This document shows, one piece after another, positions 7,846-34,573 of a DNA stretch of 37,829 nt. The stretch spans positions 1 through 37,829 of the IMG/VR virus record IMGVR_UViG_3300010383_000113; one strand, given 5' to 3'. Source of the DNA: a virus. Its lineage: Duplodnaviria > Heunggongvirae > Uroviricota > Caudoviricetes. The notes under the pieces were generated by a model, which worked only from the letters and a program-made list of their open reading frames with translations, was not told the origin of the DNA and did not search any database. Each line of letters opens with the position of its first letter. Positions within the stretch are counted from its first letter, which is position 1. The position numbers and the translations under genes are program-made.

Positions 7846-8034
7846 TTACATCCTCTTTAGCCGTTCGACGTCGGCCCTCAAGAACTTCCCGGCCTGAACC
7901 CCGCCCTCGTAGGCTTGGCGATAGGGCTCGTTATAGAACTGGGGAGTTGGTGGCCAGTTATTTCGGCCGTCACGCACCCCCATGTCGAATGCTCGATGGA
8001 GATCTTTGTTGATCCCAGGGTCAATCGACCACAT
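7846..8034 (-). CDS. Hypothetical protein
   Basis: 62 aa; RBS supplied by the motif copy at 8043. Confidence 0.65.
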   Translation of the reverse strand: MWSIDPGINKDLHRAFDMGVRDGRNNWPPTPQFYNEPYRQAYEGGVQAGKFLRADVERLKRM

Positions 8035-8419
8035 TCTGCCCTCCCTGCTCCTCCGCCGCAGGCGGCTCGAACTTGGACTTCAGCCAGAGGTATTGCTGGT
8101 ACTGCCACTTCCGATTGTATTCTTCCTCGGCGGATTTCTCCGCTTCGTGTCGTTGACGTTTAACGACCTCGTCGCGAAGCTCATCATCGGTTCGCGTGTA
8201 GTCGGCCAACTTCTCGACATTCAGTCGCTCATCCTTCTCGCCCCAGTGATAGAACTGGACCTGGAAGTCGTCGAGACCTTCGGCGGCCTTGTGCTCCTCG
8301 ATGATCCGGACGATAAGGTTGGCGGAGGTCGGGGTCGGCAGATCTTCGGCGATCGGGTGTTCGTAATTCTTGATCACACGGTCGATCTTGTAGCACTCGA
8401 CCAGTTCGTCGAGGGTCAT
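8021..8419 (-). CDS. Hypothetical protein
   Basis: 132 aa; TAAGGAG RBS; ATGA overlap with the isrB stop. Confidence 0.75.
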   Translation of the reverse strand: MTLDELVECYKIDRVIKNYEHPIAEDLPTPTSANLIVRIIEEHKAAEGLDDFQVQFYHWGEKDERLNVEKLADYTRTDDELRDEVVKRQRHEAEKSAEEEYNRKWQYQQYLWLKSKFEPPAAEEQGGQNVVD

Positions 8420-9450
8420 GTTTTGATCTCCTTATGTAGGGTGAAGGTGGTTCTAAAGGAAAGGTAGGATAAAAACCTCAAGTCTTCTGGCCTGGCGTGT
8501 TGTGAAATCCGTTTTCCTGATACGAGATCGTGCAGGCTCACTCGGCCTTTCGAAGATCCGCCGACGAACGTTAGGCCGTGTTTTGGGTGTTCGACCAGAC
8601 TCCCTCGGTTGAATCCTAAACTACGTGTTCCGCCTTGTCGCCTTCGGAAGCCTCCTTTGGTTGGTTGTAATAGATGAAGTTGACGACGAGCATAATCAAA
8701 AGGTGTGGCTAACAACACTCCAATGAAATCGGGCTTGAAATGTCCGCCGACGATTGAGTTCGCCATCACCCAGGAATCGACGCAGTGGGCATGGAAGTCG
8801 TTGGACAGCTTGGCATTGATCTTCGTCAGGCCGTGTAGAGATCGTAGTTCGGCCGTCCTCTCACCTTCGACGAGCGTCAGGGCGGCGAACTTCTCCACTT
8901 CGGCATAGAGCCACTGCTTGCCGACCTGGAGAGGGCTGAAGGATTTGTTCCAGCGATATTTTCCTTTCTTCGTCTCGGCTTTAACGTCCTCGACGACGAC
9001 GTGCTTGATAGGATACATTTTGCAAAGCCAGTTCAGGACCCGCAACTTCCATTGCCAGCGAGCTTTGGTGGAAGGCGGGATTCGTCCTTCGGGGGCCGCT
9101 CGATTGAGTCTGCACTTGCGATAAGGAGTCTTTCGAGATCGCCTAGTTCTTCGCATGTTACGTCGAACTTCCATCTTCTCCTCGACGCCCGTACGGGCAT
9201 CGGCCTGGATGTTGAGGAAGGTCTTGTGACGTGACTTGACGGTGAATCCTTCCTTCTTCGATCCGGGATCGACGCCGACGACGACTGCCTGAGTGACGCG
9301 GGCCGAGGGCTCGACGTTGAGCCGGACACAGAACACGCCGTGCTTCCAGAACGGCGTCGCCTTGTCGGACTTGATCCAGGACGCAGCCCGGTTGGGTGTC
9401 GTGGGCATGAGCGGTTGTTGGTTTTGGTCAACGACGGGAACGCTGAGCAT
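8416..9450 (-). CDS. isrB: IsrB, OMEGA RNA-guided nickase (PLMP/RRXRR, split RuvC, no HNH)
   Basis: 344 aa; QPLMPT, RuvC-I VGVDPGSK, Arg-rich bridge helix RRNMRRTRRSRK, RuvC-II VVVEDVK, RuvC-III HAHCVDS; no HNH insert. Confidence 0.9.
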   Translation of the reverse strand: MLSVPVVDQNQQPLMPTTPNRAASWIKSDKATPFWKHGVFCVRLNVEPSARVTQAVVVGVDPGSKKEGFTVKSRHKTFLNIQADARTGVEEKMEVRRNMRRTRRSRKTPYRKCRLNRAAPEGRIPPSTKARWQWKLRVLNWLCKMYPIKHVVVEDVKAETKKGKYRWNKSFSPLQVGKQWLYAEVEKFAALTLVEGERTAELRSLHGLTKINAKLSNDFHAHCVDSWVMANSIVGGHFKPDFIGVLLATPFDYARRQLHLLQPTKGGFRRRQGGTRSLGFNRGSLVEHPKHGLTFVGGSSKGRVSLHDLVSGKRISQHARPEDLRFLSYLSFRTTFTLHKEIKT

Positions 9451-9661
9451 GGGCGGTAAGCCCTCCTGTGTACATCCCTTCGACGCTGGCGACCCGAGAG
9501 GAAGAAGACTAGGGAGGCATCCTCTACGTCGTTCGGCCTACCACGGCCAGGTCGCTAACTGGCGGTTCGAAACCGCCTCGTCTAGTCGCGTTTTAACTTG
9601 CTTCGGACGGCGGTCGGGCTTCCGTCTTGACAAGCCCCTTCCTTCAGGATGGGGTTATGAC
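8416..9661 (-). mobile_element. IS200/IS605-superfamily isrB element (omegaRNA + isrB), no tnpA
   Basis: End-like GTCATAACCCCATCCTGAAGGAAGGGGCTTG at the omegaRNA 5' end; more AT-rich than flanks; 3' boundary uncertain. Confidence 0.7.
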
Positions 9662-9681
9662 TCCGTTCGCGGTAGCAGGGA
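9451..9681 (-). ncRNA. omegaRNA (HEARO-like): scaffold about 9661-9451 plus 5' guide about 9681-9662
   Basis: Structured leader directly upstream of isrB with typical blocks ACCCC..CCTGAAGG..GGGGCTTG, GACTAG, GGATGCCTCCCTAGTC..CTCT, GTCGAAGGGA; internal hairpin GGCGGTTTCGAACCGCC. Confidence 0.8.
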
Positions 9682-9892
9682 GGGTCAACTCTTCAAGATG
9701 CTGCATCGCAGTGAAGTCGTCGGCTTCGACAACGGCCTTGGCCAATCTTCCAAGTCGTTCCGCCGGGAAGCCCTTCTTCTCCAGAAGCCAGATCAAATCA
9801 CCCATCACCATGTGGCGGCATACCTGGGGATAAGGGAAGTTGAGTAGGCCCTTGATGAGTTCGAAGATGTCGTCTTGGGTGATCGGTGTCAT
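9644..9892 (-). CDS. Hypothetical protein; last codons lie inside the IS end
   Basis: 82 aa; RBS supplied by the motif copy at 9899. Confidence 0.7.
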   Translation of the reverse strand: MTPITQDDIFELIKGLLNFPYPQVCRHMVMGDLIWLLEKKGFPAERLGRLAKAVVEADDFTAMQHLEELTLPATANGVITPS

Positions 9893-14572: not shown

Positions 14573-14738
14573 AAAGCTCCATCTTGGGGCCGGGCTTGAC
14601 GTCGCCGCGTTCGTCGACGATCAAGTAGCCCTCGTGGATCAGGCAGTTGACGATGGTGCGTTCCGTCGGGGTCAGCCTGACGAAAGGCAGCCCTGTCAGA
14701 TGATAGGACACCAGCCGGACGATCTCTTCGGGTATCAT
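14571..14738 (-). CDS. Small hypothetical protein
   Basis: Own translation MIPEEIVRLVSYHLTGLPFVRLTPTERTIVNCLIHEGYLIVDERGDVKPGPKMEL; ATGA-coupled to the sigma gene. Confidence 0.65.
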   Translation of the reverse strand: MIPEEIVRLVSYHLTGLPFVRLTPTERTIVNCLIHEGYLIVDERGDVKPGPKMEL

Positions 14739-15319
14739 GCCGCGACCATCTCCCTTCGAATGCGTTCTTCGGAGCTACGCTGGATCTGACGAACTCGTTC
14801 CTTGGAGATGCCCCTGATCTTCGCGATGCCCTCCAGGGTGCGGTATTTGAAGTATCTGTCGTACAGGATGCGTCTCTCGTGCTTCTTGAGTCGTTTCAAG
14901 ATCATCGCCACCCTCTGGCGGTTCATCAGGCGGTCGATCCCTTTGTCCTCGACGCCTTCTTCTCTGGTCGGGGGCGACTTCATGATCTTGTTGGCCTGGC
15001 GTCGCCTCTGAAGTTCCGTCGCGACGTCCTGGTAGACGATCCTCCAGGCGTACGTCATGAACTTGCAGCCCCTCGTGTGGTCGAAGAACTTCTTGGCACG
15101 AAGCAGGGCCATCATGGCGATCTGGCACATGTCGTCGTCCCAATGGGGATTGACGCCGAGATCCCTCATGATCCGGAAAGTCATGGGCTCGTACTGAAAA
15201 ACGTCGATGTCCGGCCCGGGAACGGGAGCAGGGAGGGTGATGGGGGTCGACGTCACGAACGAAGGGTGGGCCGGATCCGGCGGTTCGTAGATCAGGAAGA
15301 TGTGTGATGCAAAACTCAA
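14735..15319 (-). CDS. Sigma-70 family RNA polymerase sigma factor (regions 2 and 4)
   Basis: MALLRAKKFFDHTRGCKFMTYAWRIV (region 2), RTLEGIAKIRGISKERVRQIQRSSEERIR (region 4.2); start uncertain. Confidence 0.9.
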   Translation of the reverse strand: MSFASHIFLIYEPPDPAHPSFVTSTPITLPAPVPGPDIDVFQYEPMTFRIMRDLGVNPHWDDDMCQIAMMALLRAKKFFDHTRGCKFMTYAWRIVYQDVATELQRRRQANKIMKSPPTREEGVEDKGIDRLMNRQRVAMILKRLKKHERRILYDRYFKYRTLEGIAKIRGISKERVRQIQRSSEERIRREMVAA

Positions 15320-23101: not shown

Positions 23102-23307
23102 GGGCGACTCCTGAAGATCATCTTGCGGCGATACATCTCGTCAAAGAGCTGGTCGAGGGCCGTGTACCAGCCGGGACAGACGAGCCGAAGCGTCGCCCAG
23201 TCGATGCCGTACTGGTCGCCGCCCTGGAAAGCCCGTCTCATGCGGCCGTGGGCCTTCCTGTAGATCCTTTCGAGCAGGTCGTCGGAGACGCTATCTATAT
23301 AGGACAA
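23098..23307 (-). CDS. Hypothetical protein
   Basis: 69 aa; GGAG RBS, TTG start. Confidence 0.65.
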   Translation of the reverse strand: MSYIDSVSDDLLERIYRKAHGRMRRAFQGGDQYGIDWATLRLVCPGWYTALDQLFDEMYRRKMIFRSRP

Positions 23308-23338
23308 GCACTCACTCCGTTCGTATGGAGCACGGAGG

Positions 23339-26818: not shown

Positions 26819-27397
26819 TCACTTCCGGCGAAGGCCCAGGCCTGCGACACCGATCAGGCCGCCCGCCATCATGAGGGCCGACGTCGGTTCCGGCACGACG
26901 GGGTTGCCCCCTTGGGGAGCCGTCAAGATGAGGCTTCCCGAAAGGATGTCCGTGGTCGAGAGGCCGTAATTGAAGCTGGGGGCGTTGAAGCGGATCGAGA
27001 TGTACCCGGTCGCCGCCTCCCCCGTCGCCCAGTTCCCGGCGATCTTCGTGGCCAGCATCAGGTAGTCGTCGCCCGCCTGGCGTGTCACGGTCACGCGGTC
27101 GATGAAAGCCCCCGAGAAAATGCTGTCGCCGGCCGCGTTCGCCAGGACGATGGATCCTCCGCTGTCGAAGATCCTCGCCCCCAGGGACGCGAGGAAGTCC
27201 CCGGTGGCGAAGTCGAGCGTGTAGGCCTCGGGGCCGCCGTCCACGTTGAAGTCGAGCCCGAACAAGGGTGATTCCGCCCCATCCCAGGCCAATCCGCCGT
27301 CGCTGGACCCGAGACTCAAGACGACGTCCCCGGCCCGGACCATGCCCGTGCAGAGAGCCGTCGCCACCAAGAATGCCGCAAACCTCATCATCGCCAC
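26819..27397 (-). CDS. Secreted PEP-CTERM sorting-domain protein
   Basis: Signal peptide MMRFAAFLVATALCTGMVRAG; C-terminus VVPEPTSALMMAGGLIGVAGLGLRRK. Confidence 0.9.
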   Translation of the reverse strand: MAMMRFAAFLVATALCTGMVRAGDVVLSLGSSDGGLAWDGAESPLFGLDFNVDGGPEAYTLDFATGDFLASLGARIFDSGGSIVLANAAGDSIFSGAFIDRVTVTRQAGDDYLMLATKIAGNWATGEAATGYISIRFNAPSFNYGLSTTDILSGSLILTAPQGGNPVVPEPTSALMMAGGLIGVAGLGLRRK

Positions 27398-34103: not shown

Positions 34104-34352
34104 CTACTCTTTGTCGATCAGATGGGGAAAGTAGACAGTCAGCGTCTCGTCCTCGTCGACGTTGAGCATATCTTCCCACCTGGGGATGAGACTGGGATCC
34201 CCCGCCGGAATGGGGGAGATCCCTCTAGCCGCGTCGCTCGCCTCACCCCCAAAGACCATGTCCACCCCGTCCCCCATCGGATGTTCTTCCCCGGTGGGGT
34301 TGTGGCGTACGGCGTAGAAGCTGGAATACTCGATCACGCTGAAAGTCTTCAT
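34104..34352 (-). CDS. Hypothetical protein
   Basis: 82 aa; GGAG RBS. Confidence 0.7.
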   Translation of the reverse strand: MKTFSVIEYSSFYAVRHNPTGEEHPMGDGVDMVFGGEASDAARGISPIPAGDPSLIPRWEDMLNVDEDETLTVYFPHLIDKE

Positions 34353-34573
34353 GACGACTCACTCCGTTCGTCGGGAGCAGGGAGGGGTTCGAGCCAGATC
34401 TCATGGATCACGATTTGTGGCCCATCTTGGAGTTCGGCCAGGAAGATGTGCGGTTGTCGCGGGTGGTATCGGACGATGGCGTGGGCGTCCCCGGTGGGGC
34501 TGTAATTGAATCTCATCTTGAGGTATTCGAGATAGTGGGGATTGATCCTCACTCGGTCGCCGGCCTTGAACAT
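34349..34573 (-). CDS. Small SH3/KOW-like protein
   Basis: MFKAGDRVRI; bracketed by motif pair 34374/34581. Confidence 0.65.
   Translation of the reverse strand: MFKAGDRVRINPHYLEYLKMRFNYSPTGDAHAIVRYHPRQPHIFLAELQDGPQIVIHEIWLEPLPAPDERSESS

Follow-up and report, generated by a model that had tools for sequence, protein, structure and literature searches.

An IsrB–omegaRNA element in the early-gene region of a 166-kb tailed phage: a predicted flank-derived guide with a copy of a dispersed junction motif

Introduction

A gene for an IsrB protein, preceded by an omegaRNA-like region, lies among the early genes of a large tailed phage. The OMEGA IsrB nickase elements, reportedly described by Altae-Tran 2021, belong to the ISC1 group of IS200/IS605. 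The 20 nt that would serve as the guide of this omegaRNA include a copy of a short motif which recurs throughout the phage genome, and the locus thus raises the question of whether the guide addresses repeated sites or is simply the flank of the place where the element landed. A preliminary description of this DNA had offered both readings: either a member of a repeated family of motif and ribosome binding site (RBS) was the insertion site of the element, or the element was co-opted to nick or bind, guided by RNA, repeated sites in its own or related genomes. Here, we delimit the protein, the omegaRNA, the element and the motif family, and search for targets of the guide.

Phage record and window

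The window, i.e. the whole stretch of 37,829 nt analyzed here, corresponds to the initial 37.8 kb of an IMG/VR record of 165,829 bp that is classed as a provirus and is 86% complete. The record is that of a tailed phage. The gene of the large terminase is located at 42.4–44.4 kb and is followed downstream by a block of large plus-strand genes, including an ORF of 2884 aa. With the terminase as query, no close relatives were found in the viral contigs. Nearly all genes of the window are small and encoded on the minus strand, and among the products that could be recognized are an SNase-like nuclease, a ParB-like protein and a sigma-70-type factor. The sigma-70-type factor (14735–15319, minus strand) matches the Pfam models of regions 2 and 4 (E 6e-9 and 2e-10) and is a candidate reader of a phage-specific promoter. 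A 192-aa product (26819–27397, minus strand) carries a C-terminal PEP-CTERM sorting motif (Pfam E 7.7e-5), a hint that the host is Gram-negative and has an exosortase system. There is a strong compositional split inside this single phage record: the plus-strand block of large genes at 45–75 kb has a G+C content of 70–73% and a GC3 of 0.94–0.99, while the early-gene region including the window has 57–60% and 0.7–0.8, respectively.

The IsrB protein

8416–9450, minus strand: isrB (P0001), 344 aa; its stop codon TGA forms part of the putative TAM

Judged from its sequence, P0001 is an intact IsrB with a split RuvC domain, no HNH domain and a TAM-interacting domain. Residues 4–162 match the RRXRR/PLMP domain (Pfam PF14239, E 1.8e-40), with PLMPTTP at residues 13–19. 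The protein aligns with the DtIsrB structure 8dmb (E 6e-41) colinearly over residues 3–327 and without an HNH insert, and IscB chains align to only its N-terminal part (residues 4–119/168). An HNH domain, the absence of which separates IsrB from IscB, gave no Pfam match in the 344 aa at E ≤ 0.1. More than 4000 homologues were found, the best of them with 61–64% identity. In an alignment of 16 homologues (alignment A1), D61, E154, D155, H222 and D225 are invariant columns, and they line up with the RuvC motifs of 8dmb; the RuvC D/E/D residues that the preliminary description had regarded as intact correspond to D61, E154 and D225. The catalytic residues among the invariant ones are assigned after the family. 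The stretch GKRISQ (R314, Q317) aligns with GKRIGQ of DtIsrB (R323, Q326), and R314 is invariant in alignment A1. The conserved part of the protein stops near residue 336 in the homologue alignment. The GC3 of isrB is 0.63 versus 0.68–0.93 in neighboring genes, which is consistent with acquisition.

The omegaRNA scaffold and its guide

9422–9661, minus strand: scaffold of a HEARO-type omegaRNA; matches RF02033, starts GTCATAACCCC and runs 29 nt into isrB
9662–9681, minus strand: predicted 20-nt omegaRNA guide; reads TCCCTGCTACCGCGAACGGA, followed by GTCATAACCCC at 9661
9674–9686, minus strand: copy of the motif cccTCCCTGCT[AC]c, filling the TAM-distal 8 nt of the guide
9644–9892, minus strand: upstream ORF P0122, 82 aa, co-oriented with isrB; crosses the guide and stops 16–18 nt into the scaffold

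For the start of the scaffold, which the preliminary description had presumed and had proposed to define with a HEARO model, several lines of evidence were obtained. The Rfam HEARO model (RF02033) matched 9422–9661 on the minus strand over its full length (model positions 1–211), with model position 1 at 9661. The match is weak (28.5 bits, E 0.0018, versus a gathering score of 83); at the gathering threshold Rfam returned nothing for the whole window, and HEARO emerged only with an E-value threshold. In nearly all of 80 related loci, the pattern GTCA..CCC is found 200–270 nt upstream of the ORF, and here it is 211 nt upstream. In an alignment of 31 relatives with the window (alignment A2), GTCA is invariant at columns 21–24, the 20 preceding columns are unconserved, and 29 of the 33 pairs predicted by RNAalifold have compensatory changes. 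Relative copies residing in the same genome (e.g. L036 and L039, 99.8% identical) turn alike exactly at GTCAC. On the basis of the HEARO match, the alignment of relatives and the same-genome copies, the scaffold starts at 9661, as had been presumed, and the guide is the flank 9662–9681. These 20 nt read as described previously and do include a motif copy. The statement that the guide contains the motif hinges on a guide of ~20 nt, since a 16-nt guide holds only 4 nt of the core.

The guide falls in the last codons of P0122, an ORF with a motif-type Shine-Dalgarno (SD) sequence, GGAGCAGGGAGGG, 2 nt upstream of its ATG. Where the element is in place, GTCA comes next to the guide, and therefore the element does not target itself. 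The guides of IscB/IsrB elements are the DNA just outside the omegaRNA end; transcription enters the omegaRNAs from outside, and the elements favor sites behind co-oriented genes (bioRxiv 10.1101/2023.03.14.532601). Very likely, the guide of the phage element likewise is phage DNA that abuts the omegaRNA end and was fixed by the landing site, i.e. a matter of ordinary transposon biology.

Predicted extent of the element and its putative TAM

8420–9661, minus strand: IsrB element, non-autonomous, IS200/IS605-type; 1242 bp, predicted extent
8416–8419, minus strand: putative TAM ATGA, which is also the ATG start of P0121 and the TGA stop of isrB
8420–8440, minus strand: element end with AAGGAG, 8 nt before the ATG; gives P0121 a ribosome binding site
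8021–8419, minus strand: downstream ORF P0121, 132 aa, orphan

The record contains one copy of the element. Its boundary at the omegaRNA end was set by the family alignment and HEARO, and the ATGA end by homology with relatives. The ATGA at 8419–8416 is the only NTGA past the conserved end of IsrB in the window, with AAGGAG ahead of it at a spacing of 8 nt. Where a relative has several copies in one genome, these agree up to ...|ATGA(A) and diverge beyond. An ATGA is found at the equivalent place in 65 of 78 relatives, 3–45 nt past a conserved GGTTTC box, and in 48 of these 65 its ATG opens an ORF of at least 80 codons, compared to 25% of the other ATGA sites in the same loci. Among the closest relatives retrieved, the |ATGA end coincides with the start codon of dnaE, of polA or of an NTPase gene, and the N-terminus of the dnaE product there reads ...LHGHSWFSMLDG. 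An SD-like stretch within the element just before ATGA is also present in the relatives L018, L049, L032, L081 and L103, and L103, the nearest clade-mate, ends ...AGGAGTGTG|ATGA. Elements of this IsrB clade seem to insert at start codons, replacing the 5′-UTR without silencing the gene. Many of the related loci L002–L081 and L097–L103 carry an SD-like or T-rich leader right before ATGA.

HEARO elements were reportedly described in a 2009 paper as integrating before ATGA or GTGA. DtIsrB reads G3 of the TAM with R323 and A4 with Q326, and its TAM is NTGA, with TTGA at 60 °C (PMC9581776), in agreement with the NTG(A)-type TAM that the preliminary description had given for this enzyme; a later assay found a preference for WTGA (PMC12188381). 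The element's own TAM is most likely the ATGA at 8419–8416 and not GTGA. An element-free relative of the phage was found neither with P0121, P0122 or the terminase in viral contigs nor in exact flank scans of viral and metagenome contigs, and the ATGA boundary therefore rests on homology and on the TAM-reading residues. With these, we consider it highly probable that the element comprises 8420–9661 and has the TAM ATGA.

Removal of 8420–9661 brings the guide and ATGA together and thereby reconstructs the cognate donor joint, i.e. the empty site. With the ATGA boundary, the element-free allele would read ...CGAACGGA|ATGACC.... By the same removal, the first 76 codons of P0122 and the 132 codons of P0121 form one open frame of 208 codons, whichever of the two boundaries discussed here is chosen. 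The insertion may have split a 208-codon orphan gene, the C-terminal part of which was kept translatable by the SD of the element; the single P0122–P0121 frame accords less well with insertion into a gene than with insertion between two genes. Both ORFs are orphans. Neither P0121 nor P0122 led to a related locus in the viral contigs, a protein search with P0121 returned only P0121 itself, and paralogues of the two are absent from the genome.

The other boundary places the element end 11 nt earlier (...CATAAGGA|GATCAAAACATG), with a GATC-like TAM. The cut point is formally ambiguous, as GGA is present at both junctions, and the resulting empty site, ...CGAACGGA|GATCAAAACATG, would bring back a native GGAG SD, spaced 8 nt from the ATG of P0121, in a leader resembling other modules of the genome, e.g. 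GGAGATTCGATCGTG (35251) and GGAGATCCGATCGTG (146998). However, GATC lacks both the G of TAM position 3 and the A of position 4, though the DtIsrB-type readers are conserved; moreover, the relatives have their SD-like stretch inside the element, their copies are alike up to ATGA, and 65 of 78 have ATGA at the equivalent place. We regard this boundary as improbable and retain ATGA as the probable TAM.

A Y1 transposase (TnpA, PF01797) is absent from the 166-kb record, and the element is therefore non-autonomous. Only ~1.5% of IscB/IsrB elements have tnpA nearby, and most are mobilized in trans (10.1101/2023.03.14.532601). The first scaffold stem provides the hairpin of the omegaRNA end. At the ATGA end, the terminal 85 nt are predicted to form no stable hairpin (MFE −3.2 kcal/mol, no better than shuffled sequences). 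The relatives L100 and L101 have a clear hairpin at this end, and the closest relative, L103, has a 5-bp stem only. The element may be poorly excisable, or the clade may have a short end, as in L103. The latter locus, on a Logan contig of 2.6 kb, lies amid small phage-like ORFs followed by a RecA/KaiC-like ATPase, and its scaffold starts with GTTAATCCCCC in place of GTCA. The sub-clade formed by L103 and the window IsrB may be phage-associated.

The dispersed motif

The core of the motif, TCCCTGCT, occurs 30 times in the window versus 1.5 expected. The 165.8-kb record holds 81 copies, which have both orientations and are spread over its entire length. The copies of the window range from 1404 to 37222 and are located at gene junctions. 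The full motif reads cccTCCCTGCT[AC]c, and a short G+C stem closed by a GAA-type loop often comes after it. In one orientation on the mRNA strand, it presents G[GT]AGCAGGGAGGG 2–5 nt before start codons, and this orientation appears to act as the SD sequence. In the other orientation, it is found 12–35 nt before starts or just within genes. The guide copy belongs to this opposite-to-SD type and has a CCG-CGAA-CGG mini-hairpin. Copies inside ORFs are distributed over all three reading frames without frame bias; consequently, a peptide motif (LPAT) was rejected, and it is as DNA or RNA that the motif acts. Copies of the SD type and of the opposite type tend to alternate in mRNA order and to bracket small ORFs, e.g. 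the pairs 9898/9674, 34580/34376, 7499/7217 and 36901/36605. Candidate functions of the motif are an SAS-like role, an REP-like role, or that of a site for a phage DNA-binding protein.

The motif is part of the guide because the element landed 12 nt downstream of one copy of this genome-wide junction motif. Counted from the TAM, the motif occupies guide positions 13–20, and 79 of the 81 copies have no match to the TAM-proximal positions 1–12. Since it covers nothing but the TAM-distal part of the guide, the repeat cannot be what directs targeting. A motif core is present ≤20 nt upstream in only 7 of the 1259 ATGA sites of the genome (~0.6%). Landing beside the motif would accordingly be improbable if ATGA sites were hit at random, which implies a targeting bias, a selection for junctions or a choice of the case after the fact. 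As this is a single event that was picked after the fact, the association is given little weight.

Near-cognate sites and search for other targets

34359–34383, minus strand: near-cognate site 1; motif, CCG-ACGAA-CGG mini-hairpin, GGAG (SD) and GTGA, with the ATG of the next gene at 34352
23312–23336, minus strand: near-cognate site 2; stop codon, degenerate motif TCCGTGCT, then ACGAACGGAGTGAGT, with a TTG start at 23307

Both GTGA-flanked near-cognate sites that had been described are present. On the minus strand, site 1 (34383..34359) reads TCCCTGCTCCCGACGAACGGA followed by GTGA and differs from the guide by 1 substitution and a 1-nt insertion. Site 2 (23336..23312) reads TCCGTGCTCCATACGAACGGA followed by GTGA and has 4 substitutions and a 1-nt insertion. 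In each case, the 8 TAM-proximal nt are identical to the guide and the insertion is at position 9 from the TAM. At site 1, an upstream 74-aa ORF crosses the motif and ends in an ATGA overlap. The GGAG of ...CGAACGGAGTGA is located 9 nt before the ATG (34352) at site 1 and 7 nt before the TTG (23307) at site 2, and by its position it is the predicted SD of the next gene at both. The two sites have 15 nt (ACGAACGGAGTGAGT) in common, which exceeds the match of either to the guide. The 8-nt seed followed by NTGA (CGAACGGANTGA) occurs twice in the window versus 0.05 expected, and twice in the whole genome versus about 0.07 expected, both occurrences being the near-cognate sites. The likeness to the guide is thus real, yet it comes from paralogy of a repeated leader module of motif, hairpin and SD. 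DtIsrB discriminates single mid-guide mismatches, nicks 8–11 bp from the TAM and prefers WTGA over GTGA (PMC12188381). By analogy, the near-cognate sites would not be nicked efficiently and would at most be weak, transient binding sites.

A search for further perfect targets, proposed in the preliminary description for the genome and relatives, yielded none in the genome and none in the public collections that were scanned. The 165.8-kb genome contains no second perfect target, and in the window the guide is unique at ≤3 mismatches. In exact scans, neither the full guide nor the 23-nt flank occurred in viral contigs or metagenome contigs, and the 5′ end of P0121 as well as the 16-nt guide with NTG were absent from viral contigs. 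Among metagenome contigs, the 16-nt guide with NTG had 14 matches, none of which extends into the 5′ TCCC of the guide, and there was no enrichment of the motif; by a rough estimate, 14 is the number that chance would give for a collection of this size.

Possible working of the element

Very probably, the locus is an element of IsrB and omegaRNA in the early-gene operon of the 166-kb phage, with a guide that is its flank and includes a motif copy. Read-through transcription from the co-oriented P0122 would yield an RNA consisting of guide and scaffold. The complex of IsrB and this RNA would then recognize DNA complementary to the guide and followed by ATGA. This combination would exist only in an element-free allele, i.e. 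after excision or in a co-infecting sibling phage, and in a phage the likeliest such allele would be a co-infecting sibling genome. Nicking of the non-target strand there by IsrB would favor recombinational copying of the element. Homing of this kind into a co-infecting sibling genome has been termed non-restorative homing (PMC13565253).

Two other interpretations of the intact gene and its guide were weighed. The phage might keep IsrB and omegaRNA as a nickase or binder acting on the repeated motif modules in its own or related genomes, for example for starting recombination or replication or for gene regulation. Such a co-option would agree with a guide overlapping a motif that is present 81 times and with two sites which combine an exact 8-nt TAM-proximal match with an NTGA-type TAM (0.07 expected). 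An ATGA end without the hairpin of relatives and the missing tnpA are what one would see for an immobilized, retained copy, and the landing next to a motif is improbable under random choice of ATGA. On the other hand, the motif is at guide positions 13–20 and 79 of the 81 copies do not match the TAM-proximal 12 nt, while the best two sites match there in 8 nt only and have, besides the 1-nt insertion at position 9, 1–4 substitutions, to be set against an enzyme family member, DtIsrB, that discriminates mid-guide mismatches (PMC12188381). Furthermore, the guide exactly equals the flank, as in every mobile relative, and is not uncoupled from it, the catalytic residues are intact, unlike those of nuclease-dead domesticated relatives, and there is just one element copy with one guide. 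We consider co-option very improbable; the small residual probability kept for it is due chiefly to the motif association being unlikely under random ATGA choice. A specific form of it, in which an immobilized IsrB was retained, the seed with NTGA makes the RNP dwell on or nick 34359–34383 and 23312–23336, and the landing beside the motif was targeted, appears extremely improbable. If true, IsrB dwelling at the two leader modules would amount to RNA-guided control of recombination or expression within the phage's own genome. Of the two readings in the preliminary description, insertion into a member of the motif and RBS family is upheld by a guide that is the outside flank and a flank that is a motif copy with mini-hairpin, while co-option for repeated sites is not supported, given the lack of TAM-proximal matches in all but two motif copies and of a second perfect target in the genome or the collections scanned.

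A stranded relic, which can no longer move or act and in which the guide is without present function and the likeness to other sites irrelevant, is unlikely. It would explain the absence of tnpA from the record, the ATGA end without hairpin, the single copy and the element-free target that was found nowhere in the collections scanned. Yet the ORF has full length and all invariant family residues, the omegaRNA conforms to the covarying consensus, tnpA is lacking from most IscB/IsrB elements, which are mobilized in trans, and the closest relative L103 is also short-ended without a large hairpin, so that a short end may typify the clade. An element with a flank-derived guide remains the preferred reading.

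Comparison with known systems

The protein resembles DtIsrB (Hirano 2022, PMC9581776) in its PLMP/RRXRR domain, its split RuvC without HNH and a TAM-interacting domain with the R and Q for G3 and A4. As in DtIsrB elements, a HEARO-type omegaRNA of ~210 nt is located directly upstream of the ORF and overlaps it, the guide is 5′ of the scaffold and outside the element, and the putative TAM is of the NTGA type. In contrast, the phage protein is distant from DtIsrB (E 6e-41, 325 residues colinear, many substitutions), is carried by a phage and is known here from sequence. A further difference is the ATGA end, which is short and lacks the hairpin seen in relatives. With the IscB/IsrB elements studied in 10.1101/2023.03.14.532601, the phage element has in common that it is non-autonomous, with a guide from the flank and read-through from a co-oriented gene, and that its cognate target is the donor joint of flank and TAM. 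It departs from the model given there in that IsrB only nicks and in that the element-free allele is likelier a co-infecting sibling genome than a sister chromosome.

The motif family has two parallels. Insertion sequences located in REP/BIME repeats likewise lie beside a short hairpin-containing junction repeat, and this position is the reason why the flank of the phage element resembles many other loci. REP/BIME extragenic repeats were reportedly described as IS targets by Tobes and Pareja in 2006. Unlike these, the repeat described here is a 13-mer specific to the phage, carries a GAA-loop hairpin and in one orientation serves as SD, and a RAYT/Y1 gene was not found in the record. The SAS/ESAS of cluster K mycobacteriophages are SD-containing 13-mers a few nt before many starts, often following an inverted repeat. 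The motif is similar in being a conserved, SD-bearing 13-mer close upstream of many start codons of a single phage; it differs in that it is also inverted, 12–35 nt before starts or within genes, and in that its pairs bracket small genes.

Conclusions

The locus is a worked example of how a flank-derived guide mimics multi-site targeting when an element lands in a dispersed repeat, and the position of the repeat within the guide, TAM-proximal or TAM-distal, is the test for such mimicry. This well-formed IsrB element of a large phage matches the predictions of the published model. In this IsrB clade, the position right before ATGA start codons, with a ribosome binding site brought along by the element, would explain how such elements persist in operons, with the next gene unsilenced. 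A phage-borne IsrB is a candidate RNA-guided homing device between co-infecting phages.
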